Positions 41,090 through 63,258 of a stretch of DNA of 64,000 nt are shown here, piece after piece. The DNA is taken from NCBI GenBank assembly GCA_963677835.2, contig CAXXUX010000001.1, forward strand, positions 1,536,362 to 1,600,361. Direction: 5' to 3'. A program made the translations under genes and the position numbers. Position 1 is the first letter of the stretch; every line of letters begins with the position of its first letter. This DNA is from an uncultured Saccharofermentans sp. (GTDB lineage: Bacteria; Bacillota; Clostridia; Saccharofermentanales; UBA5734). The notes beneath the pieces were generated by a model. That model made no database searches. It was given only the letters and a program-made list of their open reading frames with translations, and was not told where the DNA came from.

Positions 41090-41117
41090 TTGACAATCAC
41101 TATTCGAATGATAATAT
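41090..41117 (+). promoter_or_regulatory. predicted promoter TTGACA-16-TAATAT (TG-extended)
   Basis: Read directly. It is followed immediately by a GGTATATAT motif and a leader of about 230 nt before the first gene. Confidence 0.5.
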
Positions 41118-41354
41118 GGTATATATGAGGTTAAAACTTGTCCATGTCATATACATAAGACAAAAAGATGGCGACTAAAATTGACCTGAAATTTTCATCA
41201 CAAAACCGGACTGCAGACCAGATCTGAAAGACCATTTAGCCAGAGTCACTGTTTGATGTAGACGGAACTGTCACTTCGTCAACAACGGACTGCTGTTGTT
41301 GTGTACAAATCTGCATCTGAAATAGATCCATTGAAAGGGCAAGAAGGAGAAATT

Positions 41355-42185
41355 ATGAAGCTTTCATTTTTTACGGCAAGTCTTGCGCGTTATCCGCTGG
41401 AAAAATGTTTTCAGGTTGCAGCCGACTGCCAATTTGAAGGCGTTGAAATTTGGGGCGGCCGGCCCCACGCCTTTGCGCCGGACTTGAAAGACGGCGATAT
41501 CAATCATTTAAACCAGCTGGCCAAAGACTACAATCTGCCAATTATCGCTTTCGAGCCGGAACAGCCCGTCCATCCTTATAGCATCATGCATCGCAATGAA
41601 AAATGGCGCAAAGAAAGCATGGAATATTTCAGGATTTGCCTGGAGATGACCAAAGCCATGAACGCCAATCTGATGGTCATGGCGCCGCAGCATCCAGGTT
41701 ACGGCACGGATGGTGAAGAGAACTGGAAAATCATGATCGAAGGTTTGCATGAACTGGCAGAATTCGCTGAGAAAATCGGGACGATCCTGTGTTTGGAAAC
41801 CATAACGCAGTATGAAGGAAATCTCCTGACCCGCGCCGATGACTTGGTCCGGGCCATGCGTGAGCTTAAATCGCCCAATGTCAAGGGCATGCTGGATCTG
41901 GTTGCGCCGCTGACCATGGCTGAGCCGGCGTCTGAATACTTTGAAAAACTGGGTGCGGACATGATCCATATTCATCTTGTGGATGGCAATATCAACCATG
42001 AAGATCACTTGATCGCCGGCGACGGCGTCATCCCTTTTGTTGAAACGCTTGAAATGATCGATTCGTATGGCTACCAAGGTTATGGCAGTCTCGAAATCTT
42101 CCAGGAATACAGGATTGATCCGGTCCTGTTTACCAAAAAAGCCGTCCGGGCTGTCCGCGAATGCCAGGCCCAAATGAACAAATAA
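41355..42185 (+). CDS. xylose-isomerase-fold TIM-barrel sugar epimerase, fructoselysine 3-epimerase (FrlC)-like
   Basis: The ATG at 41355 follows AAGGAG. Motif GVEIWGGRPHAFAPDL resembles E. coli FrlC as I recall it. 276 aa. Confidence 0.65.
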   Translation: MKLSFFTASLARYPLEKCFQVAADCQFEGVEIWGGRPHAFAPDLKDGDINHLNQLAKDYNLPIIAFEPEQPVHPYSIMHRNEKWRKESMEYFRICLEMTKAMNANLMVMAPQHPGYGTDGEENWKIMIEGLHELAEFAEKIGTILCLETITQYEGNLLTRADDLVRAMRELKSPNVKGMLDLVAPLTMAEPASEYFEKLGADMIHIHLVDGNINHEDHLIAGDGVIPFVETLEMIDSYGYQGYGSLEIFQEYRIDPVLFTKKAVRAVRECQAQMNK

Positions 42186-42215
42186 TTTTAGCTTAAGGAT
42201 CATAGGAGAAGAAAT

Positions 42216-43100
42216 ATGGCATCATCTATTGACGTGAAAAAGCTCTATCAATGGTGCAGCATCCCAGCTGCCGATCTTGAAAACCATCCGGATTCGAAAA
42301 TTAAATTGAAGGTATTTGCCAGAAAAAATGATGTTTCGTCCCTGGTCGGCAACATGATGGCCGATGAGGTCATCGCAAACAACAAAATCGGCGCCTGTAC
42401 ACGATGGATTCTGCCGGCCGGCCCGATGGCCCAGTATGAAATATTCATCGATCGGGTCAATCACGAACGAATCAGCCTGGAAAATGTTTATGCGTTCCAT
42501 ATGGACGATTTTCTGGATTGGCAAGGGCGGCCTTACCCGGTTGTGAACAATTACTTCAGTCTAAAAGCCAATATGCTTGCGGATTTCTATGGCAAAATCG
42601 ACCCAAAACTTACCATTCCGGAAGAAAACCGGTTTTTCCCCGATATCAACAACATAGACTTGCTTGATAAAAAGATTGAAGAACTGGGCGGGGTCGATAC
42701 GGTTTGGGCCGGTCTTGGCTACAAGGGGCTGGTTGCGTTTTGCGAAGCGCCGAACTCGCCTTATATCGCCATTACCGAGGAAGAATATGCGAATTCCAGG
42801 ACCCGGATCGTCCATTTGAACGAGGACACCCTGATTGCCTGCAGTGAGCGGGATGTGGGCGGCCTGGTCCAAGCCATACCGCCGATGGCGATCACCATCG
42901 GCTTCAAGTCGATGCTTGCGGCGAAACGCGCCGTATTCATTGTCACCACAGGATCCTGGAAACGTACGGCGATCAGGATGTTGATGTTCAGCGAGCCGAC
43001 TCTTGAATATCCGGCCACACTGTTTCCCAAATATATTCCCGAAGTCATCGCGGTTTGCGATGAAAATACCGCGGAACCCCCGCTAAATGGCCAATTTTAA
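42216..43100 (+). CDS. glucosamine-6-phosphate deaminase/isomerase (NagB)-fold protein, divergent
   Basis: 294 aa. ILPAGP, FHMDDF (cf. NagB FNMDEY) and GLGYKGLVAFCEAP (cf. NagB GVGNDGHIAFNEP). Confidence 0.65.
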   Translation: MASSIDVKKLYQWCSIPAADLENHPDSKIKLKVFARKNDVSSLVGNMMADEVIANNKIGACTRWILPAGPMAQYEIFIDRVNHERISLENVYAFHMDDFLDWQGRPYPVVNNYFSLKANMLADFYGKIDPKLTIPEENRFFPDINNIDLLDKKIEELGGVDTVWAGLGYKGLVAFCEAPNSPYIAITEEEYANSRTRIVHLNEDTLIACSERDVGGLVQAIPPMAITIGFKSMLAAKRAVFIVTTGSWKRTAIRMLMFSEPTLEYPATLFPKYIPEVIAVCDENTAEPPLNGQF

Positions 43101-43133
43101 CATTAATTTTTGGGGGAGGAGCATGACTTAAAG

Positions 43134-44120
43134 ATGAATAACGTCCCTGATGTCATTGTTGTCAACGGGCATGGACTGGGCGAGTACTGTAATGTTAAAA
43201 GGATCCCGGTTGCCGGTGAAACCTGCAGGGCCTACAATCGGCACTTCGAGATGGATGCCGGCAAAGGGACTAATGTTGCCTGCGCGATAGGCCGCCTTGG
43301 CGAAAAGGTTGCCTTTATCGGCAAAGGCGGAGACGATGAAGGCGGCAGGCTGGGGACAGTCTGGATGGGCGAATCGCATGTCGATCTGACGCACTACCTG
43401 ATTGATCCGAATGTCGTGACCAACTTGGGATTATGCATTATTGCCGAGAACGGCGAAAATATGCTGCTGGATTTTGATGATGACAAAAACGCCATGACGC
43501 TGGAAGAAACAGATGAGCATATCCGGCAATGCATTGGCGCCAGGTTCATGACAACCGGATTTGGCGTTCCGGTCAAAACCGCCCTTTATGCCGTGACACT
43601 GGCTAAACGGCTTGGCATGTTCACCCTGATGAATGCCAGCCCGCTGCAAGATGATGTGGTTTTACCAAAGATGCCGGATTTGGATGTCCTGGTTGTCAAT
43701 GAAACGGAGGCGGCCCTGCTTTTGGGCCTTCCTAAAGATTCTGGCCAGCCGCCGCCGGAATTGGCCAAAATGCTGCGTGAAAAATATGAATGCCAAAACG
43801 TCATCATTACACTTGGCGCCCAGGGAAGTGCCGCGGCTTCCAAAGATGAGGAATGGTCGATCGAGCCGACAATCGTTGACATGGTCGATGAAACAGGCGC
43901 TGGCGACGGTTATCTGGCAGCGGTCACGGTGTGCCTTTTATGGGGAAGAAGCCTCTATGAGGCGATGCAATGGGCAAGCGTCTACTCAGCCTATCTGGTG
44001 ACATTGCCGGGATCGCTTGCCTGTTACCCGACAATCGACAAGATCGCTGGGATTTTCAAGTCTTTGGGCCAACAGGAGCTGCTTATTAATAAAAACAATT
44101 TGGAGGAACAACATGGGTAA
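43134..44120 (+). CDS. PfkB-family (ribokinase-like) carbohydrate kinase
   Basis: The ATG at 43134 lies downstream of GGGGGAGGAG. Motifs GKGTNVACAIGRLG and DETGAGDGYLAA. Confidence 0.8.
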   Translation: MNNVPDVIVVNGHGLGEYCNVKRIPVAGETCRAYNRHFEMDAGKGTNVACAIGRLGEKVAFIGKGGDDEGGRLGTVWMGESHVDLTHYLIDPNVVTNLGLCIIAENGENMLLDFDDDKNAMTLEETDEHIRQCIGARFMTTGFGVPVKTALYAVTLAKRLGMFTLMNASPLQDDVVLPKMPDLDVLVVNETEAALLLGLPKDSGQPPPELAKMLREKYECQNVIITLGAQGSAAASKDEEWSIEPTIVDMVDETGAGDGYLAAVTVCLLWGRSLYEAMQWASVYSAYLVTLPGSLACYPTIDKIAGIFKSLGQQELLINKNNLEEQHG

Positions 44121-45015
44121 ACATTTTGTCGAAGGTCTGGTTACCGAAACGATTGCGTCTTTTTTTGATGACGGTTCGGTTGATTACGACACAACGGGGG
44201 ACCTGTTCACTTTCCAGGTCGAAAAAGGAGCAAACGGCCTGTTTGTCAATGGTTTGGGCGATGAAGCTTTTTCGCTCAGCCTTGAGGAAAGGGCGAACAT
44301 TGTCAAGGTCGCCGTTGGCCGCTGCCAGAACACCCCGGTAAAAGTCATTGCCGGCGTGATGGTCAACTGGTCCGGCGAAGGGCTAAAACTGATCGAAATG
44401 TATGAAAAGACCGGCTGTGATGCCATCTGCATAGCGGCTCCGCCTTTTTTTGAATGTACCGAGGACGCGCTTTTCGAATATTTTTCAACTTTGATCGGAT
44501 CGACGAGATTGCCGGTTTACCTTTATAACTGCCGCGAAATGGGAACCCTGGTTTCGCCCAGGCTGCTTGGCAAGCTGGCCCGCACTTTTCACAATCTGCG
44601 CGGCTATAAGGATGCGACACGCAATACGGTTCATCTGCTTCAATGCATGATGGAGGTCGCCAATGATGATTTTGACTTTTTATGCGGCTGTGACGGCAGC
44701 TTTTTCATGCACATGATGGTCGGCGGCTGCGGGACGGTTTCCTTTCTCGCGGTTCCTTTCCCGACCGAGGTAAAAGACATTTATACATACTACAAGCAGG
44801 GCGAAATTGAAAAATCCAAGGCAGCCCAGGAAAAAGTGCTCAAATTGCGCTCGGCGCTTCAAAACTCGCCAAACAGCGCGGCATATATGTATGCCCAAAA
44901 ATATACCGGAGGACCATTTGCCCGCAACACGCGCCTGCCCATGGCCATGATCGCGATGGAAGAGGAAGAAATGGCAAAATTGGACCGGATTGCCAAAGAA
45001 CTGGAAATTGGCTGA
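44113..45015 (+). CDS. DapA/NanA-family (class I, Schiff-base) aldolase
   Basis: The ATG at 44113 follows GGAGG and overlaps the kinase stop by 8 nt. Motifs GLFVNGLGDEAFSLS, YLYN, and GYKDAT (catalytic Lys region). Confidence 0.75.
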   Translation: MGKHFVEGLVTETIASFFDDGSVDYDTTGDLFTFQVEKGANGLFVNGLGDEAFSLSLEERANIVKVAVGRCQNTPVKVIAGVMVNWSGEGLKLIEMYEKTGCDAICIAAPPFFECTEDALFEYFSTLIGSTRLPVYLYNCREMGTLVSPRLLGKLARTFHNLRGYKDATRNTVHLLQCMMEVANDDFDFLCGCDGSFFMHMMVGGCGTVSFLAVPFPTEVKDIYTYYKQGEIEKSKAAQEKVLKLRSALQNSPNSAAYMYAQKYTGGPFARNTRLPMAMIAMEEEEMAKLDRIAKELEIG

Positions 45016-45058
45016 ATTTGTCCTCAAGAACATGAAAAAACGCGGGGAGGCGCCTGAA

Positions 45059-45999
45059 ATGCCGGATATTCCAGATATTGTCGTTGTCAACGGGCATGGC
45101 CTTGGCGAATATTGCACTGTCAAGCGAATTCCATTGAAAGGTGAAACGGCGCTTCCTTATAACCGCCATTTTGAGATGGATGCCGGCAAGGGGACCAATG
45201 CCGCAATCGTCATCGCCAGGCTGGGCGGCAAGGTTGCTTTTGTCGGCAAGGCTGGTATGGATGAAGGCGGGAAGCTCGGCGAAAATGGATGGGCGAATCA
45301 GGGGTTGATTTAACGCACTACATTTTGGATCCAAACGTCGAAACGAATCTTGGCTTGGTCATCATTGCCGAAAACGGCGAGAATATGATTCTGAATTTTG
45401 ACGACGACAAAAACGCGATTGCCAAGGACGAGCTGGAAAAGCATCTGAGGCAATGCGCGGGGGCAAAGTATCTGGTCACCGGATTTGAAATCCCGGTTGA
45501 AACATCATTATTCGCGGCCCGGCTGGCCAAAGAAATGGGCCTGTTTGTCCTGATGAATCCAAGTCCGATCGATGAAGCTGTTGAGCTGCCGGAAATGCCG
45601 TTTGTGGATTTGCTTTGTGTTAACGAGACGGAAGCCTGCATTTTGTTAAAACTAAAGCTGCAGGAGGAGCAGGATTGGCAAAAGATGGCGCAAGCGCTCC
45701 GGGAACATTTCAAATGCCCAAACGCCGTCATCACGCTTGGCAAGAAGGGCAGCGCAGCGGCATCTTCTGCGGGGACCTGGGCCGTCGCTCCGACACCGGT
45801 TGTGATGGTGGACGAAAGCGGCGCCGGCGACGGATACCTCGCAGCTTTAACGCTAAATCTCAGTTGGGGGAAACCCTTGCGTGAAGCGATGGAATGGGCC
45901 AGCAAATACTGCGCTTATCTGGTCACACAAAAAGGCTCGATTGCCATCTATCCATACCTGGATCAAATGGAGGGCATCTTTGCCAGACTCAAGAATTAA
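45059..45999 (+). pseudogene. second PfkB-family kinase, paralog of 43134-44120, interrupted by a 1-nt frameshift near 45281-45288
   Basis: ORF 44990-45313 encodes the N-terminal 85 or so residues (PDIVVVNGHGLGEYC...GKGTN...GGKLGE). ORF 45289-45999, in another frame, continues (W)MGESGVDLTHY... colinear with the paralog (GGRLGTVWMGESHVDLTHY). The junction is GGCGAAAATGG. Confidence 0.7.
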
Positions 46000-46019: not shown

Positions 46020-46832
46020 ATGCAATGGTGTAAAGAATTATTCGGGGTCGAAAAGCCGATTATCGCGCTGCTTCACATGCGGGCGCTGCCTGGAGATCCT
46101 CAATATAAACGGAATGATACGATGAAACAGGTCATCGAGTTCGCCCGGCAGGATTTGCACAACCTGCAGGATGGCGGCGTGGATGGCGTATTATTCTCAA
46201 ATGAGTACAGCATGCCTTACCAGAAGCATGTGCCTTTCCTGATTCCTTCGGCGATGGCGCGCGTCATTGGCGAACTGATGAGTGAAATCCGCGTGCCTTT
46301 CGGCGTTGATTGTGAAGCGGACGCCATGGCTACACTTGATCTTGCCGCTGCAACCGACGCTTCATTTATCCGGGGCACCTTTACGGGCGGATATGTTGGC
46401 GATATCGGCATCATCAACACGGATATTGCCCGGCTTTTGCGCCGGAAGCATGATTTGGGGCTGGATAATCTCCGGATGCTCTACTTTCTGAACTCGGAAT
46501 CCGACGAATACCTGGCCCATCGCGAACTGCCGGCAATTGCCAGATCGATCATCTTCACCTGCAAGCCGGATGCGCTTTGCATATCCGGCGCCAATGCCGG
46601 CCTTGAAGCCAATTCGTCCTGGATTGCCGATGTTCGCGCCGTTACGAACGGCGTACCTGTTTTTTGCAACACCGGCTGCAGTGCGGAAAACATCCGGCAA
46701 AAGCTTGCCATTTCCGATGGCGCGTGTGTCGGCACCGCCTTTAAAGTCGGCGGCAAATTTGACAACCTGGTCGATGGCGAACGGGTCAGGCAATTTATGG
46801 AGCAGGTCATGGTGTACCGCAAGGCACATTAA
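46020..46832 (+). CDS. BtpA/SgcQ-family TIM-barrel protein (function unknown)
   Basis: 270 aa, RBS AGGAGG. N-terminus KPIIALLHMRALPGDP is typical of the family. Confidence 0.7.
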   Translation: MQWCKELFGVEKPIIALLHMRALPGDPQYKRNDTMKQVIEFARQDLHNLQDGGVDGVLFSNEYSMPYQKHVPFLIPSAMARVIGELMSEIRVPFGVDCEADAMATLDLAAATDASFIRGTFTGGYVGDIGIINTDIARLLRRKHDLGLDNLRMLYFLNSESDEYLAHRELPAIARSIIFTCKPDALCISGANAGLEANSSWIADVRAVTNGVPVFCNTGCSAENIRQKLAISDGACVGTAFKVGGKFDNLVDGERVRQFMEQVMVYRKAH

Positions 46833-46875
46833 TCAACATCAGCTAAAAATATATTGTGGTGTAGAGGGAATAAAA

Positions 46876-48399
46876 ATGTCGATGGAATATTTTTGCGGCA
46901 TAGACGTTGGCACCTACGAAACCAAAGGCGTCATTATTGACGGGCAATGCCGGATTATTGCGGAAAACACGGTCAAACACGGTCTGGATAACCCCAAGCC
47001 GAATTATTTTGAGCATGATGCCGAACAGGTCTGGTGGCATGATATTTGTGAAGTTTCGCGCGGCCTGCTGCTGAAAGCGGGGATCAAAAATACCGAAATT
47101 AAAGCGGTCGGCGTGAGCGCCATCAATGCTTGCGTCGTTCCCGTCGACGAAAACGGCGTGCCGCTGCGCAAGGCCATTTTGTACGGCATCGACGCGCGAG
47201 CCGAAGCCGAGATGGCATTCATTGAGCAGTACTACGGCGAAGAGCGCCGCAACCAGCTGTTTAACGGCCGGCCGATTTGTTCGTCGGACTGCATGCCTAA
47301 AATCATGTGGATAAAAAATAACGAGCCGGAGATTTTCCGCAAGACTTCAAAATTTCTGACGTCATCTTCCTACATAACCGCAAAACTGACTGGCGAATAT
47401 GTAATCGACCGCTTCCTGGCGCTTTCTTCCTTCGCGCCCTGCTACAATCCTGATTTGTCCGTCAACAAAGAATTGTGCGAGGAGTTGTACTGCCAATCCG
47501 GGCAGCTGGCTTCTGGCAGGGAATCAACGGATGTTGTCGGATACGTCACGGCAAAAGCTGCCGGGGAAACGGGGCTTTCTGAAGGCACGCCGGTTATCAC
47601 GGGAACGGATGATTCGGCGGCGGAGGCAATCAGCACCGGCGTTACACGCCCGGGCGACCTGATGATCCAACTGGGATCAACGTGCTACATCATCTACTGT
47701 TCCGATAAAATGGTCGTTGATGAGCGGCTTTGGGCAGAAGATTATATTATTCCAGGCACGATCAGCATCGATGGGGGGACAAATGCAGCCGGCGCTTTGA
47801 CAAAATGGCTGAGGGACACGATTTTTACGGATTTTGCAGCAGAACAGGAAAGGACCGGGCAAGATGCCTACGGCAGGATGGCGGCCTGCGCCAGGGAAAT
47901 TCCTGCAGGCTCGGATGGCTTAATCACACTGCCCTATTTTGCCGGCGAACGAACGCCGATCAATGATCTGAACGCCAAAGGCGTCATCTTTGGCCTGCAG
48001 CTGCATCACACCCGCGAACACATCTACCGGTCGGCGCTGGAGGGCATTGCCTACTCGATTGCCCAGCATGTCGACATCATCGAAGAGCACGGGCTAAAAA
48101 TCAATAAACTGATGGCTGTCGGCGGCGGCACGAAAAATCCTTTATGGCTGCAGATTATTGCCGATGTGACCGGACATGCCGTCAATACGGCAAAAGTGAC
48201 CATCGGGGCGTCATACGGCGACGCCATGATGGCGGCAATCGGCGTTGGCCATTTTAAAAGCTATTATGATCTTTCGGAATATATCTCCCCCGATAAAGTC
48301 CTGCGGCCAAACCCGGAAAACCATGCGGTTTATCAATCTTACCAAAAGATTTTTGGACAAATATACCTTGCAACAAAGGAGCTGATGCATATGCTTTAA
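46876..48399 (+). CDS. FGGY-family carbohydrate kinase (xylulokinase-like)
   Basis: The ORF track extends to 46537 in a frame overlapping the BtpA gene. The ATG at 46876 follows GAGGG. Motifs CGIDVGTYETKG and AVGGGTKNPLW. Confidence 0.85.
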   Translation: MSMEYFCGIDVGTYETKGVIIDGQCRIIAENTVKHGLDNPKPNYFEHDAEQVWWHDICEVSRGLLLKAGIKNTEIKAVGVSAINACVVPVDENGVPLRKAILYGIDARAEAEMAFIEQYYGEERRNQLFNGRPICSSDCMPKIMWIKNNEPEIFRKTSKFLTSSSYITAKLTGEYVIDRFLALSSFAPCYNPDLSVNKELCEELYCQSGQLASGRESTDVVGYVTAKAAGETGLSEGTPVITGTDDSAAEAISTGVTRPGDLMIQLGSTCYIIYCSDKMVVDERLWAEDYIIPGTISIDGGTNAAGALTKWLRDTIFTDFAAEQERTGQDAYGRMAACAREIPAGSDGLITLPYFAGERTPINDLNAKGVIFGLQLHHTREHIYRSALEGIAYSIAQHVDIIEEHGLKINKLMAVGGGTKNPLWLQIIADVTGHAVNTAKVTIGASYGDAMMAAIGVGHFKSYYDLSEYISPDKVLRPNPENHAVYQSYQKIFGQIYLATKELMHML

Positions 48400-48406
48400 G
48401 TTAATG

Positions 48407-48434
48407 TTGACATTTGACAAGTGGTATATATAAT
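48407..48434 (+). promoter_or_regulatory. predicted consensus promoter TTGACA-16-TATAAT
   Basis: Read directly. It is overlapped by AAGTGGTATATA (48419-48430), and a second AAGTGGTA lies at 48449-48456. Confidence 0.55.
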
Positions 48435-48496
48435 AGAAACATAGGGGTAAGTGGTAAACAATAGAGCTAAAAGGAGTATGTTTTACTGAAGGGAGG

Positions 48497-51852: not shown

Positions 51853-51862
51853 GAGAACTGAT

Positions 51863-55286: not shown

Positions 55287-55288
55287 TT

Positions 55289-55717: not shown

Positions 55718-56579
55718 GGACGTCATCTCCATAAACAAATCTGAGGGCGTTTTGCCCGAGGATCATGTCAAAAAAATCTTCTTGCAGGGGCATTTCCCGA
55801 ATGGCCTGCAGCATCCGTATCTGTTCCAGACGAGGTTCGTCAGAACCGAAAATCACCTGGTGCCGGAAAGTCCGCTCCAGCCAGTCCGGTCCCATGTCGG
55901 TCTGGAAGACTTGATGGTAGAAGGCTTTGGGATTGTCGAAATAGAGCAGGGCGGTATCGGCAAAAATATTAGCGTATTTCAGCAGAAGCATGCAGGTATC
56001 GCCAATCCAGGGCCAGCCAAAATGGGCCAGGCAAATTCTTAATTCGGGGAATCGGAAGGCGACTTCTTCGAACCTCAGGGGATGGGCGTATTTGGCCAGG
56101 GTGCCAGGCTCCAGCGACATGCCTGAATGGAAAATGACCGGCTTGCCGAATTTGATGCAAGTGCGGTAAATGGCGTCCATTTGGGGATCGTCCGGATAAA
56201 ACCGCTGTTTGGATGGATGCAGTTTAAGCCCCATCAGCTTCAAGTGGCAAAAGGCATGCTCCAACCTTTCCAGCGCATCCGGCGAACCAGGATCGATGCT
56301 GGCAAAGCCGATAAACCGGTCCGGATACCGGTCAACTAGAAATTTAACCTGCTCATTGCTTCCGACGCAGGCGCCATTGATCGAGGCGAGGTCGAGCGGC
56401 AGCAAGATCATCTTGTCAATGCCGGCATAATCGCACTGGTTGAAGAGTTGCCGGATAGAAATCCGATCGGTCTTGAAAAGCCCCATTGCCTCCTGGTTGG
56501 CTTTCAGCTGTCCATCGTCGAGTCCCGGTTCATCAAGAAAAGCGGCATGCACATGTGCGTCAATAATTTGCTTTTTCAT
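55704..56579 (-). CDS. amidohydrolase-2 (PF04909-like) metal-dependent TIM-barrel hydrolase
   Basis: The ORF track extends to 56807. The ATG at 56579 follows AGGAG. N-terminus MKKQIIDAHVHA, later LAHFGWPW and FGSDEP. Confidence 0.75.
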   Translation of the reverse strand: MKKQIIDAHVHAAFLDEPGLDDGQLKANQEAMGLFKTDRISIRQLFNQCDYAGIDKMILLPLDLASINGACVGSNEQVKFLVDRYPDRFIGFASIDPGSPDALERLEHAFCHLKLMGLKLHPSKQRFYPDDPQMDAIYRTCIKFGKPVIFHSGMSLEPGTLAKYAHPLRFEEVAFRFPELRICLAHFGWPWIGDTCMLLLKYANIFADTALLYFDNPKAFYHQVFQTDMGPDWLERTFRHQVIFGSDEPRLEQIRMLQAIREMPLQEDFFDMILGQNALRFVYGDDVHGRI

Positions 56580-56592: not shown

Positions 56593-57381
56593 TCAATCGA
56601 TCCATGGCGCAAATGTCCCGACAACCTGTGCGGCCAGTCTGGCGCCGGCTTGCTGCGCTTCCAGGATGCTTTTGCCCTGCATGATCCGATGGATGAAGCC
56701 GGCAATGTAGCTGTCGCCGGCACCGACTGTATTGACAACTTCGGCCGGATAGATGCCAAATGCATGGAAATCGGTTCCGTCCCAGACCAGGCTCCCGGCT
56801 TCGCCAAAAGTCACGACGCATAAGGTGGCGCCCTGCCTGACAATATCTTTCATGAACAATTCGATTTGCGGATCCCTGTTCGGATAGGAGAAAAAAGCAT
56901 AATCGACTACCGGCGCAATTTGCCGGACTAAAGGATCATTTAACTCGGTGGCAAAGTCAAAGCTTATAGCGACGCCGCGTTTGTGCAAGTCGGGCAGGTG
57001 TTCCTGGGCATTGCCCCAAAATGCCGAATGCACCAGATCGTGTTTGGCAGCGAAGTTAATGTCTTCCGCCGAAAATTCAATATCTTTCATGACGCCCTCG
57101 ACATAGTCGCCGTAAGTTCGTTCCCGGTCGATCAGCTGCATGTACGATACGGCGGTTTGCCCCTGGCAAACATGCAGGTGGGAGACGTCCAGGCCCTGGG
57201 CTGTCAAGGTCAAAAGCATCTCCTGCCCGTAGCGGTCATTGCCGGTCGACGAGATGATGGAAGTCTGTATGCCCAGCTTTTGCATATTGACCGCGAAATC
57301 AACAGCATTGCCAGTCATGTAATAACAATTCAAATCGGTATAATAATCAACACAGTTATCGCCAATTGCTGCAATTTTCAT
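56593..57381 (-). CDS. PfkB-family kinase, fructoselysine 6-kinase (FrlD)-like
   Basis: The ATG at 57381 follows AAAGGA. MKIAAIGDNCVDYY and NTVGAGDSYIAGF. Closest in pattern to E. coli FrlD as I recall it. Confidence 0.75.
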   Translation of the reverse strand: MKIAAIGDNCVDYYTDLNCYYMTGNAVDFAVNMQKLGIQTSIISSTGNDRYGQEMLLTLTAQGLDVSHLHVCQGQTAVSYMQLIDRERTYGDYVEGVMKDIEFSAEDINFAAKHDLVHSAFWGNAQEHLPDLHKRGVAISFDFATELNDPLVRQIAPVVDYAFFSYPNRDPQIELFMKDIVRQGATLCVVTFGEAGSLVWDGTDFHAFGIYPAEVVNTVGAGDSYIAGFIHRIMQGKSILEAQQAGARLAAQVVGTFAPWID

Positions 57382-58975
57382 TTGATGTCCTTTCAATCAC
57401 GCTATTTTGACAAGTGTCTTGCCAAATGATTTTGCCATTGAAAATGGTCAGGGAAACCTTGGCCTCAGGCAGCTTGTCGACCGGCATTGAAAAAATGTTC
57501 CGGTCGAGGACTGCAAGGTCCGCCAGCTTGCCGGCTTCGATTGTCCCGAGCGATTTTTCCTGGAAATTGGCGTATTGCCCGCCGATTGTCCAGGCCCGCA
57601 GGCATTCGGCGACGGTTAGCGCCTGGCTTGGATTAACGCCATTTTCAGGTTTTCCATCCCTGAACCGGCGAGATAGGGCGAGATAAGCCGACAAAGGAAT
57701 GTCAGGCGCTGTCAGCGGCAGATCGGTGCCACAGCAGACATTGACGCCCGCAGCCAGCATGTTGCGATAAGGCCAATAGTTCTTGATCCGGTCCATGCCG
57801 ACAAATTCATATCCATAAAAATCTTCCGAGGTGCCAATGCAATCCATGATCTGCATATAATTGACCGCTGTAATCCCGAGCTTGGCCATCCGCTTTAAAT
57901 CATCCGGCTGCACCATTTCCAGGTCGACGATCATATGGCGGGAGTCTTTTGGGCCATTGGCCTCACGGCATTTCTGGAAGATGTCGATCGTTTTTCGGAC
58001 CGCCTGGTCGCCTTCGGCATGCAGGGCGCACCGGTACCCCTGGCGGTCGGCCTCCAGCACGGTCTTTTCCAGGGCGTCATAGTCGATGATCTGTTCGCCG
58101 AAGCTTTCCGGCCGATTGGCATACGGTTCTAGCAGATGGGCGTTCCATTTGGCAATTTCACCGTCAACCATCAGATTGAAGCCCATGAATTGGATTAACG
58201 GGGAGCTGAAACGCTCGCGGCAAGCTCCGGCGTATTCAAAATCGGCCGGCCGGCCTACCGGCTGGGAAACCAGATTGACCCGATGCATCAGCTGCCCTTG
58301 GCTGGCGAGCTCGTGCAAAACATCCGTAAAACCGGAGTAGTCGTCAAAACCGATTTCCTTGATTGCCGTTACCCCGCGTGCCGCAAGAAAATGACTGAAA
58401 CGCCCGTATTCGGCTTTGATAAACTCCCGGTCAGCGAGGAAATCCTGAAAGACTTTGTAGCAGTTTTCCGCAAAAACCGCATTGCCGTTAAAACCATATC
58501 GCCGGATGGCTGCCTGGTTTAACAGGCAGCCATCCCGGTCCGCGGTAAAGCCCAAAACCGGGCGGGATCCAAATTGTTCAAGCAATTCCAGATCTTTCCC
58601 GGCGTTTTCCAGCACAAAACCGGGCAGGTTATGCCCGAAAACCGGTTTGCCGGCGGGCGTCAGGCTGGCTTGCCGGACAAAAAGCTCACAAGCCTCGCTG
58701 ACAGTCCTGGCTGATGCCAGATCAATCCCCAGCTGCGACCACACCTGTCCGGTGAAGAAAACGTGATTGTCGACAAAACCGGGGCAGACAAGCTGTTCGC
58801 CCAAATCAAGGACTGCCGTATGGTCAGCAAGCCAGGGCCCCATTTCTTCAAGAATGCCGACTGCGGCTATGCGGTCGCCGGCAATGGCGACAAAGCCCGG
58901 AAATGGGGCGTCAACCGGATCGGCGCCGGTATAGAGGCAGGTGGAAACCAGGATCAGATCTGCTTTCTGAATCAT
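57356..58975 (-). CDS. amidohydrolase-3 (YtcJ-like) metal-dependent hydrolase
   Basis: The ATG at 58975 follows GAGGAG. About 539 aa. CPGFVDNHVFF (degenerate HxH), ALHAEGD, CCGTDLP. Confidence 0.75.
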   Translation of the reverse strand: MIQKADLILVSTCLYTGADPVDAPFPGFVAIAGDRIAAVGILEEMGPWLADHTAVLDLGEQLVCPGFVDNHVFFTGQVWSQLGIDLASARTVSEACELFVRQASLTPAGKPVFGHNLPGFVLENAGKDLELLEQFGSRPVLGFTADRDGCLLNQAAIRRYGFNGNAVFAENCYKVFQDFLADREFIKAEYGRFSHFLAARGVTAIKEIGFDDYSGFTDVLHELASQGQLMHRVNLVSQPVGRPADFEYAGACRERFSSPLIQFMGFNLMVDGEIAKWNAHLLEPYANRPESFGEQIIDYDALEKTVLEADRQGYRCALHAEGDQAVRKTIDIFQKCREANGPKDSRHMIVDLEMVQPDDLKRMAKLGITAVNYMQIMDCIGTSEDFYGYEFVGMDRIKNYWPYRNMLAAGVNVCCGTDLPLTAPDIPLSAYLALSRRFRDGKPENGVNPSQALTVAECLRAWTIGGQYANFQEKSLGTIEAGKLADLAVLDRNIFSMPVDKLPEAKVSLTIFNGKIIWQDTCQNSVIERTSNENCSNWR

Positions 58976-59013: not shown

Positions 59014-60474
59014 TCAGAAAATAAAGCCGGCAACCAGGTACATGACTGCCGAGATGGCAAAGGCGCCCACCTGATAAGGCATGCCTGCCAGGTTGTGATC
59101 ATACAGGTCGACGCCGGTCGCCGCAGCCGTGCAAAGGCCGGCATCCGAAGCGAAGCTTGAATTGCTGCCGAAAAGTCCCGCGCAGAACATGGCCGCCAGG
59201 CACAGGTAGGGATTTGCCCCGGTCGCCGCGGCCAGGGCGATAACGGACGGCATGACCATCATGTACAAAGTCCAGTTGAAGGTGACCAGGTATTCTGTGC
59301 CGCAAAACAAAATGAAGATAATGACTGGCAGCAGGTGAGGATTCAGAACGCCGCTGGTGGCGCTGACAACGAATTCCGTGAAGCCCAGCTCGGAAATCAT
59401 GCCGGTCATGGTGAAGCCGATGACCAGCAAGAAAGTCATTGCCATCATGCTGTTGAAACCATCGATCACCATGGTGAAAATCCGGTCGATCTTGAAAATT
59501 CTTTGAATAAAGAACAGGATGCCCGTGACGACGATCGCCAGGCCAAGGCCGTACTGCATGTTGAAATCAAAGTAGATGCACAGTCCGATCATGGAAACGA
59601 TCGGCACGATAAAAGAGATGAGATTGACGCCCTTTCTGGGCTCGACGATTTCCTCCTCCAGTTCGACGTTTTTTTCGCCGATGTCCACGGGGCCTGCCGG
59701 CAAAGCCGGGCCGCCTGCAGAAACCCGTTCATAGGCCTTTTTGATCAGGCCGATTTTCGGCAGCCAGCCCATGCAGAAAAGAAAACCGAACAACAGGCTG
59801 ACAAAGCAGTAAAACATGTAGGGAACGATTTTCATGTACTCGCCTACGCCGGTTCCGCTGGCTGCAAAATTATTGGTTTCAAGGAGGGACGCTCCAAAAA
59901 TGACCCAAGATCCAATGGGAATTATTGACGAAGTATGGACGGCGCTTGAACGGATAATGAATGCGGTTGCTTCCCTTGGAATGCCAAACTGGTCATTCAT
60001 CGGCGAAAGGCTGGCGCCGGTGACAAAGGCGCAGAGGTAGTCGTCCACACTCAACAGCCAGCTCATGATCCAGGTCAATAAAAGCGCAACCTTGGAGCTC
60101 TTGGCTTTTTTGGCGACTTTGCGGGCAAAAAAGGTAGCCGCGCCGCTCATTTTCAAAAAAGTGATCAAAACGCCAAGCAAAAGGAAGACGATGATCAGGT
60201 AGGCGTTGTCGGGATCGGTGATGGTCCCGGCGATCCGGTCGCTGTAAATCAAGTAGAATCCCCAGCGGTATTTGATGAAAACCGCCAGCACGCCAGACCA
60301 GAGAAAACCTTCGATGACGCTTTTGGTTAAGATGATGAAGACGAAGATGGCAACAGCAGGCAGCATGGCCCAGGCTGCATAATAGTCTTGACTTTCGGGC
60401 GCGAATATCGCTGCCGCCGCAAAGCAGGCCAGCATAAAGACGTATCCGATAGTCTTGCGATTAAGAAACTTCAT
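59014..60474 (-). CDS. NhaC-family transporter
   Basis: The ATG at 60474 follows GAGGGGG. About 486 aa, polytopic. Paralog of 49405-50928. Confidence 0.75.
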   Translation of the reverse strand: MKFLNRKTIGYVFMLACFAAAAIFAPESQDYYAAWAMLPAVAIFVFIILTKSVIEGFLWSGVLAVFIKYRWGFYLIYSDRIAGTITDPDNAYLIIVFLLLGVLITFLKMSGAATFFARKVAKKAKSSKVALLLTWIMSWLLSVDDYLCAFVTGASLSPMNDQFGIPREATAFIIRSSAVHTSSIIPIGSWVIFGASLLETNNFAASGTGVGEYMKIVPYMFYCFVSLLFGFLFCMGWLPKIGLIKKAYERVSAGGPALPAGPVDIGEKNVELEEEIVEPRKGVNLISFIVPIVSMIGLCIYFDFNMQYGLGLAIVVTGILFFIQRIFKIDRIFTMVIDGFNSMMAMTFLLVIGFTMTGMISELGFTEFVVSATSGVLNPHLLPVIIFILFCGTEYLVTFNWTLYMMVMPSVIALAAATGANPYLCLAAMFCAGLFGSNSSFASDAGLCTAAATGVDLYDHNLAGMPYQVGAFAISAVMYLVAGFIF

Positions 60475-60487
60475 GAACAAACCCCCT

Positions 60488-61339
60488 CTAATAATGTGTG
60501 CCATAACCGAATGCGCCATCAACCAGACAATTATTGGCGGAAAATTCTGCTGCAGTCAAAAAAGCCTGCTCAATCTTTGTCTGGTTGATGCGGACATTCT
60601 TTTTCCAGCCCTGTTTCAGTAAACTAATTGAAAATGATGTAAAAAATGAATCTCCGGCGCCCATGGTGTCGACGGCCCTGACCAGCCTGACTTCGCCGCT
60701 GTACTGCCTGACGCCGTCGAAAAGGCTTTGCCCTTTGGTCCCCATCGTTGTCAGCACGTATTTCGTGCCAAACGCAGACACCTTTTTTTGAAGCTGGCTA
60801 ATCGCATCGCCGTCCATGCCTTCACAGGAAAATAAGGCCATGTCGATCCAAGGGCAGATCAACTGCAAATAAGCGTCGTTCCGGAATTCTTCTTCAACTG
60901 AGAAATCAAAAGTAATGTTGGCTTTCAAATTCTTGAGCTTTTTGATCTCGGTCTCGACAGAGGCATAGCAACCGCTGTGGATGAGGTCAAAACCTGCCAG
61001 ATAATCAAAGTCGACTGGTTCAAGAAGGTACGGGCCGTGCTTGGTTTCGCGCAGATCGTCGGCGACAAAGACCCGGTCGCCATCGATCAGGTTGACATCA
61101 CAGCGCTCGGTTGTCGTTCCAGGCGCCGTGCGGCAACGGCTGATTGACACGCCCACATCAAGAAGCGCCGATTTGATGCAGTCAGCTTCCCGGTCGTCGC
61201 CAAACACGCCCAGATAGGCTGCTTCGACGCCGGATTTTTTGGCAAAAACGGCAAAATTGACCGCATTTCCGCCAGGGTACATGACTTTTCGGTTGATGTA
61301 ACGATCGACCACATTGTCGCCATAACCTAGTACTTTCAT
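60488..61339 (-). CDS. PfkB-family kinase, fructosamine kinase (FrlD)-like
   Basis: The ATG at 61339 follows GAGAGG. MKVLGYGDNVVDRY...YPGGNAVNFAVFA and DTMGAGDSFFTSF. Confidence 0.75.
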   Translation of the reverse strand: MKVLGYGDNVVDRYINRKVMYPGGNAVNFAVFAKKSGVEAAYLGVFGDDREADCIKSALLDVGVSISRCRTAPGTTTERCDVNLIDGDRVFVADDLRETKHGPYLLEPVDFDYLAGFDLIHSGCYASVETEIKKLKNLKANITFDFSVEEEFRNDAYLQLICPWIDMALFSCEGMDGDAISQLQKKVSAFGTKYVLTTMGTKGQSLFDGVRQYSGEVRLVRAVDTMGAGDSFFTSFSISLLKQGWKKNVRINQTKIEQAFLTAAEFSANNCLVDGAFGYGTHY

Positions 61340-61358
61340 ACTCGAGCCTCTCAATCTA

Positions 61359-62372
61359 TCAGTATTCCACCACTTTGTAATATCGGCGGAAGGTCAGGTC
61401 ATGCCCGGTGGCATCCTGCAGATGCGGATTGATTCTGCCCAATGCGCCGCAGATGACCAGCGGGGAGAACAACGGACGGAATTTCCCGGAAATGCCGGCC
61501 AGTTCATAGTCTTTGGCATCGTAAACAGTCAGTTTCTTGGTATAGCGCTCGCAGAATTTTTGGATGCGGTCACAGACTGCGCGCGATTCATCTTCGCCTT
61601 TGACAACGACCACATGGGTGTTGTCATCAACAAGCTCCAAGGTGCCATGGAAAAAATCTGACGAATGGACCGACTTGGTGCGGATCCATTGCATTTCTTC
61701 CAGAACGCACATCGCATAGCAATAGACTTCACCCCAGGTATTGCCGCCGGCAGTAAAGATGTGGTAATTCTCATCCTTGTATTTGCGGACAAATTCCGCT
61801 GCTTGAACATCGGCCTTCTCCTTGACCGCGGCCATGGCTTCCGGCAATTTTTCAAGATTTTCGACGAAGTCGGCATAATCCTTCATTTCATTGCGCTTGT
61901 GCAGCAAGTAGCCAAAAAACAGGTACTGGATCAAATAGTCGGCATCGGCCGAGTACGGATCCTTGCTGGTATTGACCACAGAATAGTCAACCAGCTTTTC
62001 CAAAGCTGAATTTTCGGTGCCAAGGCCGCAAATCGTCACAGCGCCGCGCGCTTTTGCATAATTGGCGGATTCGATGATTTCTTTGGTGTTGCCGGAATCT
62101 GACATGAAAAAGACAACGGAATTTTCACCAAGATTGCGGTTGCCGGTTGAAATCAGCTCGGCTGCATTTTCGGCATAAACTTTCAGATCCGACATCTTTT
62201 TGAACATATGCATGAATGGCAGCATGATCGCCAGCGTGCCGCCGATGCCGACCAGGAACACGTTCGCCCTTTTTTCCTGCATGACCTGATCGACAATCGT
62301 TTCAATTTCCGATCGTTTTTGCAAGACCAGGTGCATTTTCCTGATGTATTCGTCTTTGAACTGTTTATCCAT
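61359..62372 (-). CDS. SIS-domain protein, fructosamine-6-phosphate deglycase (FrlB)-like
   Basis: 337 aa, RBS AAGGGAG. Motifs VFLVGIGGT and FFMSDSGNT, with C-terminus RRYYKVVEY. Confidence 0.75.
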   Translation of the reverse strand: MDKQFKDEYIRKMHLVLQKRSEIETIVDQVMQEKRANVFLVGIGGTLAIMLPFMHMFKKMSDLKVYAENAAELISTGNRNLGENSVVFFMSDSGNTKEIIESANYAKARGAVTICGLGTENSALEKLVDYSVVNTSKDPYSADADYLIQYLFFGYLLHKRNEMKDYADFVENLEKLPEAMAAVKEKADVQAAEFVRKYKDENYHIFTAGGNTWGEVYCYAMCVLEEMQWIRTKSVHSSDFFHGTLELVDDNTHVVVVKGEDESRAVCDRIQKFCERYTKKLTVYDAKDYELAGISGKFRPLFSPLVICGALGRINPHLQDATGHDLTFRRYYKVVEY

Positions 62373-62535
62373 AGTATTTCTCCCTTTTCGATTTTCAGTG
62401 ATCGTGCATTATCTTCAAGAATCGGCCGGATTCATGGATGATACAAAAAAACGCAAACAAAATAAGCAGGGCGGAAAAGTTTCTCCTGCATGAGGATTGA
62501 TGACAGGGGGCCTTCTATAATTTATCGGTTATCTT

Positions 62536-63258
62536 TCAAGCGCTCTTGATGTCGATTGTATAATTGATGCGCTTGGCGTTGACGATCGTTTTGGTATATT
62601 CTACCGGTTGATTGTCTTTGGCATAGGCAACCGCCTTTTCGACAAATACCGTGTCGTTTTCGAAAAGATCAAGCAACCGGGCTTCTTGCGCAGACGCCCT
62701 GGACAATTTGACTTCGATGTCTTGTTTGGTCATTTGGATGCCGTATTTCTCACCCAGGACCCGATAAAGCGACAACTTCGCAAAATCATGATTTTCCAGC
62801 CCTTTGCACAGCCTGGCGGGAATATGGGAGACTTCCAGCAGAAGATCTTCTCCATCAATGCTGCGAACCCGGGACAAGACGTAGATTGGACTGCCCTGGG
62901 GGATGCTGAGCAATTCGGCAGCGATCCGGTCCGCCTTGGCGACTGTAATACCGATCATTTTGCTTTTGGCAACCTTCCCCTGGGCCAGGACCGAGTCGGA
63001 AAAAGAAATGAAATCCTTCATGTCGATATGGCATTTTTCCGGCGCGATGAAGTTGCCTTTGCCGTGAATAGAGATAATTCGGCCTTCCAGCTGCATCCTG
63101 CCCAGCGCCTCCCGGATTGTTCCCCGGCTGACGCCGCAAAGCAAGGTCAGTTCCCGCTCCGAAGGCAAAGCGTCGTTTGCCTTCAGCTGGTTTAAATCGA
63201 TATGCTCTTCAATTGCGTCAATGACATCTTCGCGAACCAGGTTGTTTTGCTTGGCCAT
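62536..63258 (-). CDS. GntR-family (HutC/UTRA) transcriptional regulator
   Basis: 240 aa, RBS AAGAGG. Motif LPSERELTLLCGVSRGTIREALGRM. Confidence 0.85.
   Translation of the reverse strand: MAKQNNLVREDVIDAIEEHIDLNQLKANDALPSERELTLLCGVSRGTIREALGRMQLEGRIISIHGKGNFIAPEKCHIDMKDFISFSDSVLAQGKVAKSKMIGITVAKADRIAAELLSIPQGSPIYVLSRVRSIDGEDLLLEVSHIPARLCKGLENHDFAKLSLYRVLGEKYGIQMTKQDIEVKLSRASAQEARLLDLFENDTVFVEKAVAYAKDNQPVEYTKTIVNAKRINYTIDIKSA

Follow-up and report, generated by a model that had tools for sequence, protein, structure and literature searches.

What do the 22 tightly packed genes at 41-63.3 kb of the window, a 64-kb stretch (G+C 50.0%) from an uncultured Saccharofermentans species, do together, and do they form one system or several? 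Cooked food and decaying plant matter are rich in Amadori and Heyns compounds, which shape gut communities, fructoselysine being a source of butyrate, and the known genetics of fructosamine utilization comes from four small model loci. A preliminary description had read the region as a set of paralogous fructosamine modules under four HutC-type regulators. With moderate confidence, and judging from sequence comparison, we regard 41.1-63.3 kb as a composite catabolic island for fructosamine (Amadori)-type sugar-amine conjugates, built from cassettes that travel together in many Firmicutes. It is best read as an extended frl-type system with a linked second set, the two probably being under common regulation. 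The genes of the island also lie together in other genomes, at more than 100 loci, so it is more than a chance arrangement.

Frl-type enzymes of the island

Families were assigned by Pfam and NCBIfam scans of the window proteins, with the curated NCBIfam equivalog scores as cut-offs. All gene families named in the preliminary description were recovered by Pfam, and its coordinates proved right to within a few codons. These are three AP_endonuc_2 proteins (FrlC-like 41355-42185, 51010-51852, and 51860-52723), four PfkB kinases (43110-44120, 45289-45999, 56593-57381, and 60488-61339), an FGGY kinase (46873-48399), two NhaC-type Na_H_antiporter proteins (49387-50928 and 59014-60522), a SIS protein (61359-62372), and four regulators with GntR and UTRA domains (48497, 53747/53753, 54483, and 62536). 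The limits of some scanned reading frames (43110-44120, 49387-50928, 51010-51852, 51860-52723, 59014-60522, and GntR2 from 53747) differ slightly from the starts listed below. Seven genes were added by the Pfam and NCBIfam scans, encoding NagB-like, DHDPS-like, BtpA/SgcQ, PHP phosphatase, YjbQ/UPF0047, Amidohydro_2 (AH2), and Amidohydro_3 (AH3) proteins. The frl-type enzymes and the carriers are the following.

61359-62372, minus strand: FrlB-type double-SIS deglycase, 2.5e-68 to Salmonella FrlB (PDB 8GLR)
56593-57381, minus strand: FrlD1, fructoselysine 6-kinase-type PfkB kinase, 338.8 bits on the FrlD equivalog, 41.5% identical to E. coli FrlD
60488-61339, minus strand: FrlD2, second FrlD-like PfkB kinase, 152.3 bits on the FrlD model, 31.6% identical to E. 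coli FrlD
41355-42185, plus strand: FrlC-like sugar epimerase, a xylose-isomerase-like TIM barrel (AP_endonuc_2 1.8e-39; FrlC model 275.7 bits), with 39.6% full-length identity to E. coli FrlC
51016-51852, plus strand: TIM2 (AP_endonuc_2), FrlC model 85.9 bits, always adjoining TIM3 in related loci
51863-52723, plus strand: TIM3 (AP_endonuc_2), FrlC model 145.8 bits, the best-conserved protein of the set
49405-50928, plus strand: NhaC-family carrier 1 (NhaC1; Pfam Na_H_antiporter), counterpart of the carrier of the NagB-like set
59014-60474, minus strand: NhaC-family carrier 2 (NhaC2), 60-70% identical in the related loci L001, L003, and L106

Residues 6-337 of the island SIS protein align end to end with residues 6-336 of Salmonella FrlB (2.5e-68), scoring 234 bits, as against about 46 bits to GlmS-type isomerase domains. 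Salmonella FrlB is a 6-phospho-fructose-lysine deglycase in which catalytic E224 and H240 and substrate-binding S46, S91, S93, T96, and E98 have been mutated (PMC10285752). The island protein retains E224/H240, S91, S93, T96, and E98 and has S46 replaced by T; it also shares the RRYY...Y C-terminus.

FrlD1 exceeds the cut-off of the FrlD equivalog (NF007321; 338.8 against 247 bits), with KDG kinase models at only 38-49 bits. Both FrlD1 and FrlD2 are Pfam PfkB proteins carrying the GAGD nucleotide/catalytic motif, as VGAGDS and MGAGDS, respectively. A PDB sequence search with FrlD2 was uninformative, returning only KDG kinase at 1e-10. All three TIM barrels score highest on the FrlC model (NF007360, cut-off 305 bits), and the FrlC-like protein reaches 22 bits on the IolE model. 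TIM3 is 67-78% identical in most related Clostridia loci that have the TIM2-TIM3 pair. By score, the frl-type genes are nearer the fructosamine families than AgaS/GlmS, KdgK, IolE, and the like, the assignments which the preliminary description had itself set against its reading.

The island paralogs are old, judged from their identities: 29.5% for FrlD1/FrlD2, 28% for the island SIS protein and the SIS protein of a separate upstream module, 25-28% among the three TIM barrels, 47% for NhaC1/NhaC2, and 59% for the two ribokinase-like kinases described below. The region does not qualify as a compositional island. The G+C content per 2-kb block is 44-54% within it versus 47-54% in the rest of the window, with no marked shift, and the sole low block is 48001-50000, at 44%.

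In the pathway that we propose, the conjugates would be taken up by the NhaC-family carriers and phosphorylated at C6 of the sugar by the FrlD-type kinases, the family assignment being established for FrlD1. The SIS deglycase, given its conserved catalytic residues, would then cleave the product to glucose-6-phosphate and the amine, and the FrlC-like TIM barrels may feed in epimers.

The extended frl set in other genomes

Further enzymes are encoded among and beside the frl-type genes.

55704-56579, minus strand: Amidohydro_2 protein AH2 (Pfam 1.3e-27), of the hydratase/decarboxylase branch of its superfamily
55289-55717, minus strand: YjbQ/UPF0047 protein (Pfam UPF0047 3e-27), its start overlapping the end of the AH2 gene
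57356-58975, minus strand: Amidohydro_3 protein AH3 (Pfam 2.1e-59), found in 38 of 80 AH2 loci and in a short Bacillus/Clostridium version of the cluster
46020-46832, plus strand: BtpA/SgcQ-family TIM-barrel protein (Pfam BtpA 1e-66; TIGR00259 229 bits, above the cut-off)
46873-48399, plus strand: FGGY sugar kinase, xylulokinase-like (FGGY_N and FGGY_C; XylB model 304 bits, cut-off 380)
52720-53511, minus strand: PHP-domain phosphatase of the HisJ family, from family scans

Relatives were collected by a search with AH3, which gave 16 loci, and by an AH2 profile search, which gave 196 relatives, of which 80 loci were kept; counts out of 80 refer to these, and individual loci are designated by L and a number. 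In Lachnospiraceae and other Clostridia, a same-strand cluster contains genes for SIS, AH3, FrlD2, NhaC, FrlD1, AH2, YjbQ, TIM2, and TIM3, usually together with BtpA and FGGY, and two divergent GntR genes lie upstream. The order SIS-AH3-FrlD2-NhaC-FrlD1-AH2-YjbQ-TIM2-TIM3-(BtpA, FGGY) forms a single operon in L004, L005, L007, L008, and L009; L016 has the same extended frl operon minus NhaC, and L010 and L013 hold the same genes in another order. Thus the window genes of three transcription units (49.4-52.7, 55.3-62.4, and 46.0-48.4 kb) make up one colinear operon elsewhere. The closest relative of the minus-strand operon, L106 from a mouse-gut Lachnospiraceae, has the gene order of the window with TIM2-TIM3 attached. 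The gene junctions from FrlD1 to GntR1 are reproduced in two independent short-read contigs. Besides gut Clostridia, the extended set was found in soil and rhizosphere Paenibacillus, Bacillus, Neobacillus, and Metabacillus and in Chloroflexota.

Several cassettes can be delineated from these arrangements. Cassette Ia, GntR4-SIS-FrlD2-NhaC2-AH3, would be a self-sufficient unit of uptake, kinase, and deglycase, and it occurs alone in Bacillus sp. JJ1764 and Clostridium neuense as a short version with GntR, SIS, FrlD2, NhaC, and AH3. Cassette Ib, FrlD1-AH2-YjbQ, lies inside canonical frlA/B/C/D operons in other genomes. TIM2-TIM3 and BtpA-FGGY complete the extended frl set, which is one operon in Lachnospiraceae. 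A second set (FrlC-like, NagB-like, kinase, DHDPS-like, kinase, with NhaC1) shows independent conservation, although it is sometimes fused or adjacent to the first.

YjbQ is directly downstream of AH2 in 78 of the 80 loci. Of these loci, 76 have a FrlD-like kinase (59 have two), 65 have a HutC regulator (46 have two), 62 encode some class of deglycase, and 67 a FrlC-like or other TIM barrel; besides the AH3 cases mentioned above, BtpA and FGGY occur in 30 each and NhaC in 19. Searches with the FrlABCDR proteins of E. coli K-12 showed an E. coli-type FrlA (51-68% identical) in 35 of the 80. FrlA-FrlB-FrlC is directly upstream of AH2-YjbQ in L146, L128, and L161, whereas in L118, L124, and L125 this position is taken by FrlD-FrlB-FrlC, with FrlA downstream of YjbQ. 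For instance, the Anaerolineaceae locus L146 reads FrlA-FrlB-FrlC-AH2-YjbQ, and Clostridium manihotivorum (L125) has FrlD-FrlB-FrlC-AH2-YjbQ-FrlA-GntR-FrlD'-GntR. Since AH2-YjbQ stands beside canonical frl genes in so many bacteria, we consider it to be an accessory pair embedded in their canonical frl operons, of which the E. coli operon would be a reduced form.

Two related loci have further content. In the cultured [Clostridium] asparagiforme DSM 15981 (L137, 6579-12737), the extended frl cluster is accompanied by a HAD phosphatase, a SGNH/GDSL-like open reading frame (ORF), and an E. coli-type FrlA (55% identical) after YjbQ. The metagenome-assembled genome (MAG) of a Clostridiales bacterium (L015, 4073-7459) contains NhaC, AH3, SIS, a second SIS, ORFs resembling IIB, IIC, and IID of a mannose-family phosphotransferase system (PTS), a HAD phosphatase, and TIM2-TIM3. 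It would be a hybrid of gfr-type and kinase-type systems, the PTS assignment having been read by eye from the sequences.

The metal ligands H9, H151, H186, and D247 of AH2 are invariant or nearly so in 26 homologs; H11 is invariant only in an alignment of seven sequences. The protein thus has the features of the Amidohydro_2 branch, a TIM barrel with the HxH...H...H...D metal-ligand set. Its predicted structure (pLDDT 91) has as nearest structures the uncharacterized BB4693, the LigJ hydratase, LigW, and the gamma-resorcylate and ACMSD decarboxylases, with TM values of 0.62-0.76 for BB4693, LigJ, LigW, and ACMSD. Since these fold neighbors lie in a branch that does not hydrolyze amides, AH2 is less likely to carry out amide hydrolysis, for instance to deamidate fructosyl-Gln or fructosyl-Asn. 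Because the fold falls in the hydratase/decarboxylase branch, hydration, elimination, or decarboxylation would be expected instead. With low confidence, we suggest that AH2 and YjbQ could add such a step, absent from E. coli, acting on the phosphorylated ketoamine or its product.

In the AH3 ortholog alignment, an invariant DNHVFF occupies the expected HxH metal-binding position. A PDB sequence search with AH3 was uninformative, giving only the uncharacterized 3igh and 3icj, and the same kind of search with BtpA gave no homolog of solved structure. As for the PHP phosphatase, equivalent clusters elsewhere contain HAD phosphatases. A literature search found nothing tying YjbQ, BtpA, or these amidohydrolases to fructosamines, and neither AH2 nor YjbQ belongs to any fructoselysine pathway described so far. 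The E. coli php-yhfS-Z cluster, which lies beside frl, was considered as a relative of the island amidohydrolases and rejected, since Php has no BLASTP match to any island protein.

The second gene set

The plus-strand operon begins with the FrlC-like gene and continues with genes of other families.

42216-43100, plus strand: divergent NagB-like sugar-phosphate deaminase/isomerase (nagB model 72.5 bits), without a Pfam match
43134-44120, plus strand: ribokinase-like PfkB kinase 1 (PfkB 1e-39; ribokinase model 151.6 bits, cut-off 299.65; FrlD model only 44.8 bits)
44113-45015, plus strand: DHDPS/NanA-family class I lyase (Pfam DHDPS 2.8e-41; dapA model 140.6 bits, cut-off 206)
about 45032-45999, plus strand: ribokinase-like PfkB kinase 2, 59% identical to kinase 1, split here by a one-base homopolymer difference at 45282-45285

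Kinase 2 appears truncated (45289-45999), but its N-terminal part is encoded in a different frame, beginning at 45032. Over 6.9 kb, the window is 99.956% identical to a metagenome contig of 369 kb (ena:ERZ21831265:ctg81777l). The two differ there by three one-base homopolymer indels and by no mismatch, and one of the indels restores the frame (AAAA at 45282-45285 of the window, AAAAA in the contig). Because this long-read contig lacks the difference, the split is probably an assembly error, and the alternative of a true pseudogene was rejected in its favor. Differences of this kind also lie at 45491 and 45614 in that assembly. Conversely, indels in that assembly split its SIS, NhaC2, and FGGY genes, which are intact in the window; apparent frameshifts in this source are possibly assembly errors. 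An exact-sequence look-up of the island SIS protein gave no match, because the other assembly has an indel in that gene.

The NagB-like protein is about 31% identical to E. coli NagB over the whole length and retains D72, E148, R172, and K208, but D141 is replaced by K and H143 by L in all seven orthologs, and it scores far below every curated cut-off. In addition, its N-terminus is extended by 35 residues, and there is an insertion behind the catalytic loop. Since H143 and D141 are lost in every ortholog, the protein does not appear to be a standard deaminase, although it probably acts on a sugar phosphate. The orthologs are 69-77% identical and come from seven genomes, of Faecalicatena, Mediterraneibacter, Oscillospiraceae, and other Clostridia MAGs. 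The order NagB-like, kinase, DHDPS-like, kinase, FrlC-like, NhaC1-like is conserved in at least seven genomes. A GntR pair is always present, the set being kept with its own pair in L017-L022 and L024, and FGGY, HAD phosphatase, and BtpA genes are often near. The carrier closing the set in L017, L019, L020, L022, and L024 is 45-56% identical to NhaC1. As a possible function, the kinases would phosphorylate the substrate and the NagB-like enzyme, in which the NagB phosphate site and catalytic Asp are preserved, would split it. The best guess for the substrate, admittedly speculative, is an N-substituted aldosamine-6-phosphate of the Heyns type.

A less likely reading is that the plus-strand set (FrlC-like, NagB-like, two ribokinase-like kinases, DHDPS-like, and NhaC1) is an ordinary amino-sugar or sugar-acid pathway which merely adjoins the frl-type genes. 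The ribokinase-like, NagB-like, and DHDPS-like genes, which the preliminary description had partly counted among its fructosamine modules, are not demonstrably fructosamine enzymes, as their scores are nearest other families: kinases 1 and 2 reach 152 and 132 bits on the ribokinase model versus 45 and 39 bits on the FrlD model, the NagB-like protein matches only glucosamine-6-phosphate deaminases, and the best PDB matches of the DHDPS-like lyase are DapA and YagE, at about 1e-27. Further, L019, L022, and L024 have the set but neither SIS nor FrlD genes. However, a FrlC-like gene is found in all five loci that extend past the second kinase (L018, L019, L020, L022, and L024), with TIM2-TIM3 in its place in L017. 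In the latter, a Faecalibacterium MAG, the set is fused with the frl-type genes into the single operon SIS-FrlD2-TIM2-TIM3-NagB-like-kinase-DHDPS-like-kinase-NhaC. The two sets adjoin in three genomes (the window, OY763424.2, and DXDR01000083), and in the Oscillospiraceae chromosome OY763424.2 they are within 45 kb of each other, much as in the window. The same pair of two different GntR types and the BtpA-FGGY genes are common to both sets, and the loss of H143 and D141 in every NagB-like ortholog likewise speaks against a standard amino-sugar route.

Regulators, alternative readings, and known systems

The island contains four regulators and several promoter-like sites.

48497-49228, plus strand: HutC-type regulator GntR1 (GntR and UTRA), 31.6% identical to GntR4, of the same type
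53753-54466, plus strand: HutC-type regulator GntR2 (GntR and UTRA), 39.5% identical to GntR3, of the same type
54483-55196, minus strand: HutC-type regulator GntR3, with its own perfect promoter at 55259-55231
62536-63258, minus strand: HutC-type regulator GntR4 (GntR and UTRA)
41090-41117, plus strand (to 41123 with ATGGTATA): promoter-like site TTGACA-16-TAATAT with TG ahead of the plus-strand operon; ATGGTATA is a one-mismatch copy of GTGGTATA
48407-48434, plus strand: perfect sigma-70-like promoter of gntR1, with GTGGTATA at 48421-48428
53599-53628, minus strand: promoter-like site of the PHP gene, with GTGGTATA at 53601-53608
63337-63365, minus strand: promoter-like site of gntR4, with GTGGTATA at 63339-63346

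The site at 41090, proposed earlier as the promoter of the island, agrees with the consensus at 10 of 12 positions and has the TG; a promoter-like site also precedes gntR2. Between gntR4 and the SIS gene, the promoter scan found no promoter-like site, and gntR4 is probably the first gene of the minus-strand operon. The regulators are of two types, GntR1/GntR4 and GntR2/GntR3. Because related loci hold one of each type side by side, the four regulators of the window represent two conserved pairs.

The 8-mer GTGGTATA occurs exactly three times in the 64 kb, always at island promoters (gntR1, PHP, and gntR4), where 0.33 copies are expected; none of 100 shuffles reached three. It is present in two to four copies in regulatory regions of related clusters of other genera (L004, 8761-8931; L005, 4482-4695; L009, 4623-4952). 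In related loci it is concentrated between the GntR pair and the first structural gene, and some of these sites are palindromic (TGGTATACTATACCA). At least two copies within 300 bp were found in 14 of 104 cluster loci versus none of 80 control loci. We suggest GTGGTATA as a candidate operator half-site for the HutC-type regulator pair; the operator expected for this repressor subfamily is of the GT-N(x)-AC type. The E. coli FrlR is a repressor released by fructoselysine-6-phosphate (bioRxiv 10.1101/2020.01.13.904318). By analogy, the two pairs of different HutC-type repressors may hold the GTGGTATA promoters until a phosphorylated intermediate releases them.

A separate module lies outside the island.

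1896-9389: upstream module with a FraB-like deglycase (7466-8464), a FrlD-like kinase (6563-7444), a substrate-binding protein (SBP), two permeases, a carrier of the major facilitator superfamily (MFS), and a GntR regulator (8625-9389)

This is the frlB-frlD-ABC module of the preliminary description, and its content was recovered in full, with the kinase at 187 bits on the FrlD model; its GntR regulator also combines the winged helix with a UTRA domain, as do the four of the island. Residues 2-332 of its SIS protein match FraB at 8.1e-92, B. subtilis FrlB at 9.4e-70, and Salmonella FrlB only at 1e-21 (for FraB structures, see PMC12359202). The C-termini RRYYKVVEY of the island SIS protein and RRYMWKVEY of the upstream one are as read earlier; the RRY...EY C-terminus is a hallmark of the family, present in all three solved deglycases. 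Both proteins score below the FrlB equivalog NF008481 (82.4 and 84.6 bits, cut-off 430), a model built around the E. coli-type FrlB, to which they are only about 25% identical. Hence the window contains, by alignment, two classes of deglycase, a Salmonella-FrlB-like one in the island and a FraB/B. subtilis-FrlB-like one upstream, which fits different substrate classes. Where the FraB-like deglycase gene and its GntR gene diverge, a direct repeat, TGTCTGGTG, is found at 8500-8508 and 8587-8595. These are its only two copies in the window (0.17 expected), and TGTCTGGTG is probably an operator of the upstream GntR regulator.

These data bear on the view that the region is made up of paralogous modules which work independently, each under a HutC regulator of its own and each for a chemically different glycated amino acid. 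In its favor are the two deglycase classes, the three FrlD-like kinases of the window (30-36% identical to one another), the occurrence of cassette Ia alone in Bacillus and C. neuense, the re-assortment of cassettes among genomes, and an upstream module with the operator-like repeat TGTCTGGTG of its own. Nevertheless we consider it unlikely, as the cassettes are one colinear operon in Lachnospiraceae, two kinases (59 of 80) and two regulators (46 of 80) are usual within a single locus, FrlD1-AH2-YjbQ includes neither a carrier nor a deglycase, the four regulators are two types that occur as pairs, and one rare motif, GTGGTATA, is common to three island promoters. Separate modules for different glycated amino acids are thus plausible for the upstream module versus the island and for the NagB-like versus the SIS-based set, whereas four independently regulated paralogous modules are unsupported. 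A regulator for each module was not borne out, since the regulators are two conserved pairs and the cassettes are colinear in one operon elsewhere. The preliminary remark on the lack of described pathways holds for most of the gene content.

A shift of substrate is improbable, namely that the island serves biogenic sugar-amines (deoxyfructosyl-glutamine or santhopine, mannopine-type opines of decaying plants, and related ketoamines) and not food Maillard products, with accessory enzymes handling lactone, lactam, or amide forms, as could be argued from the soil and rhizosphere carriers named above and from the lactonases that the Amidohydro_2 family includes. Frl-like genes mentioned on the Agrobacterium Ti plasmid (PMC12136445) point the same way, but the nearest structures of AH2 are hydratases and decarboxylases and not lactonases, an opine-type oxidoreductase or cyclase is missing from the island, fructose-lysine enzymes are the closest to FrlD1 and the SIS protein, and such a reading alters the substrate and not the mechanism.

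Our preferred reading of a composite fructosamine island has points against it as well. FrlD2 (152.3 bits) and the upstream kinase (187.2 bits) fall below the FrlD cut-off of 247, though FrlD is the best family for both, and the FrlC-like protein (275.7 bits) falls below 305, close to it and with the next family at 61. In AH3 the canonical HxH motif is missing, and in the literature we found no fructosamine substrate of NhaC-family carriers. GTGGTATA overlaps the -10 region and could be an extended -10 element instead of an operator. The only direct frl link of the second set is the FrlC-like gene and the co-location, its kinases being nearest ribokinase and its lyase nearest DapA. Finally, the related loci were retrieved by peptide patterns, and the co-occurrence counts describe the relatives found and are not an unbiased census.

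The surroundings of the island belong to other pathways. The flavin adenine dinucleotide (FAD) oxidoreductase pair at 9416-12430 was considered as an amadoriase or opine oxidase and rejected, as its subunits are beta- and alpha-like ones of the sarcosine-oxidase type beside an L-glutamate gamma-semialdehyde dehydrogenase (786 bits, above the cut-off). The whole segment 9416-14403 is most likely a proline dehydrogenase complex with 1-pyrroline-5-carboxylate (P5C) dehydrogenase, unrelated to the frl genes. A thiamine pyrophosphate (TPP) riboswitch at 16665-16771 (69.9 bits, Rfam) precedes the ThiC, ThiM, and ThiE genes (17628-20389); the Rfam scan of the window found no other regulatory RNA, and no tRNAs were found. 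ThiC reaches at most 84% identity to species representatives, the nearest being those of uncultured rumen and gut Clostridia and of [Clostridium] polysaccharolyticum, which points to a member of the Clostridia that is probably Lachnospiraceae-like. A cluster of the hydantoin-utilization type at 29752-38995 encodes an FCD-type GntR regulator, an aminotransferase, an N-carbamoyl-amino-acid amidohydrolase, a hydantoin racemase, a sugar-type ABC transporter, and a dihydropyrimidinase/hydantoinase (514 bits), and is followed by KDPG aldolase and glutamate dehydrogenase genes up to 40969. On the other side, a plus-strand ORF at about 63430-64000 opens just past the island and runs off the end of the window, marking the right-hand border of the cluster.

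Comparison with the frl, fra, and gfr loci, proposed as a check in the preliminary description, showed that the island shares frl families and differs from each system in its carriers and extra genes. With E. coli frlABCDR it has the same four families in common (FrlD1 41.5%, FrlC-like 39.6%, HutC-type repressors 25-34% identical), and E. coli-type FrlA, FrlB, and FrlC (51-68%) share an operon with AH2-YjbQ in many island relatives. Unlike E. coli, the 29 proteins of the island and the upstream module, the part of the window searched with FrlA, include no FrlA homolog, NhaC carriers being present instead; the island deglycase is only 25% identical to E. coli FrlB, and each island set holds two kinases and two regulators. 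The AH2, YjbQ, AH3, TIM2/3, BtpA, FGGY, and phosphatase genes are absent from the E. coli locus. GfrR represents a sigma-54-dependent type of regulator. In contrast to the gfr system of Salmonella and F. prausnitzii, in which a mannose-family PTS permease couples uptake to phosphorylation, the window proteins include neither a PTS component nor a GfrR-type activator, and soluble kinases would perform the phosphorylation. The BtpA/SgcQ-family protein recalls the E. coli sgc operon, and relatives L018, L106, and L137 have it near Rpe-, UlaE-, and AraD-like genes (read by eye); the window lacks PTS and SgcE-like genes, which we take to be part of sgc. The NagB-like protein and E. coli NagB share the whole-length alignment and the four residues named above, and differ in overall sequence and at positions 141 and 143. 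The upstream module resembles Salmonella fra and B. subtilis frlBONMD-frlP in its FraB-like deglycase, whose C-terminus RRYMWKVEY is exactly that of B. subtilis FrlB. As in the B. subtilis frl ABC system (PMC12632257), its transporter genes encode an SBP and two permeases but no ATPase. It differs from fra in having neither the FraE asparaginase nor a FraA-type carrier, and from B. subtilis frl in gene order and in the added MFS carrier. Riboflavin degradation, described in a Lachnospiraceae preprint, was rejected as a parallel, its neighborhood (aldolase, oxidoreductases, and riboflavin kinase) being unrelated.

As a tentative proposal, which may well prove wrong, FrlD-AH2-YjbQ, often with AH3, BtpA, FGGY kinase, and phosphatase, could extend the fructosamine pathway in a way not described before. 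This gene group is widespread among Firmicutes and Chloroflexota, and the E. coli, Bacillus subtilis, and Salmonella models lack it. The metal-dependent AH2 and YjbQ would act on the phosphorylated ketoamine or its enol, for instance in an eliminative or rearranging deglycation, with the sugar product then used by the FGGY kinase and BtpA barrel. For Heyns-type conjugates, the NagB-like set would provide a new route that does not involve a SIS protein. If true, this would provide the first physiological roles for the UPF0047/YjbQ and BtpA/SgcQ families.

Thus, a larger conserved version of frl, with two kinases, two regulators, and several accessory enzymes, exists in many gut Clostridia and soil Firmicutes. 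It gives testable genomic contexts to two long-standing families of unknown function, YjbQ/UPF0047 and BtpA/SgcQ. Its cultured carriers include [Clostridium] asparagiforme DSM 15981 (NZ_CP102272.1, about 2.947-2.968 Mb), Enterocloster lavalensis KCTC 15153, Clostridium sp. Marseille-P3244, Caproiciproducens galactitolivorans BS-1, Clostridium manihotivorum CT4, Paenibacillus macerans, and Neobacillus niacini. Counting frlD or frlB matches in metagenomes as simple fructoselysine pathways probably lumps several chemistries together.

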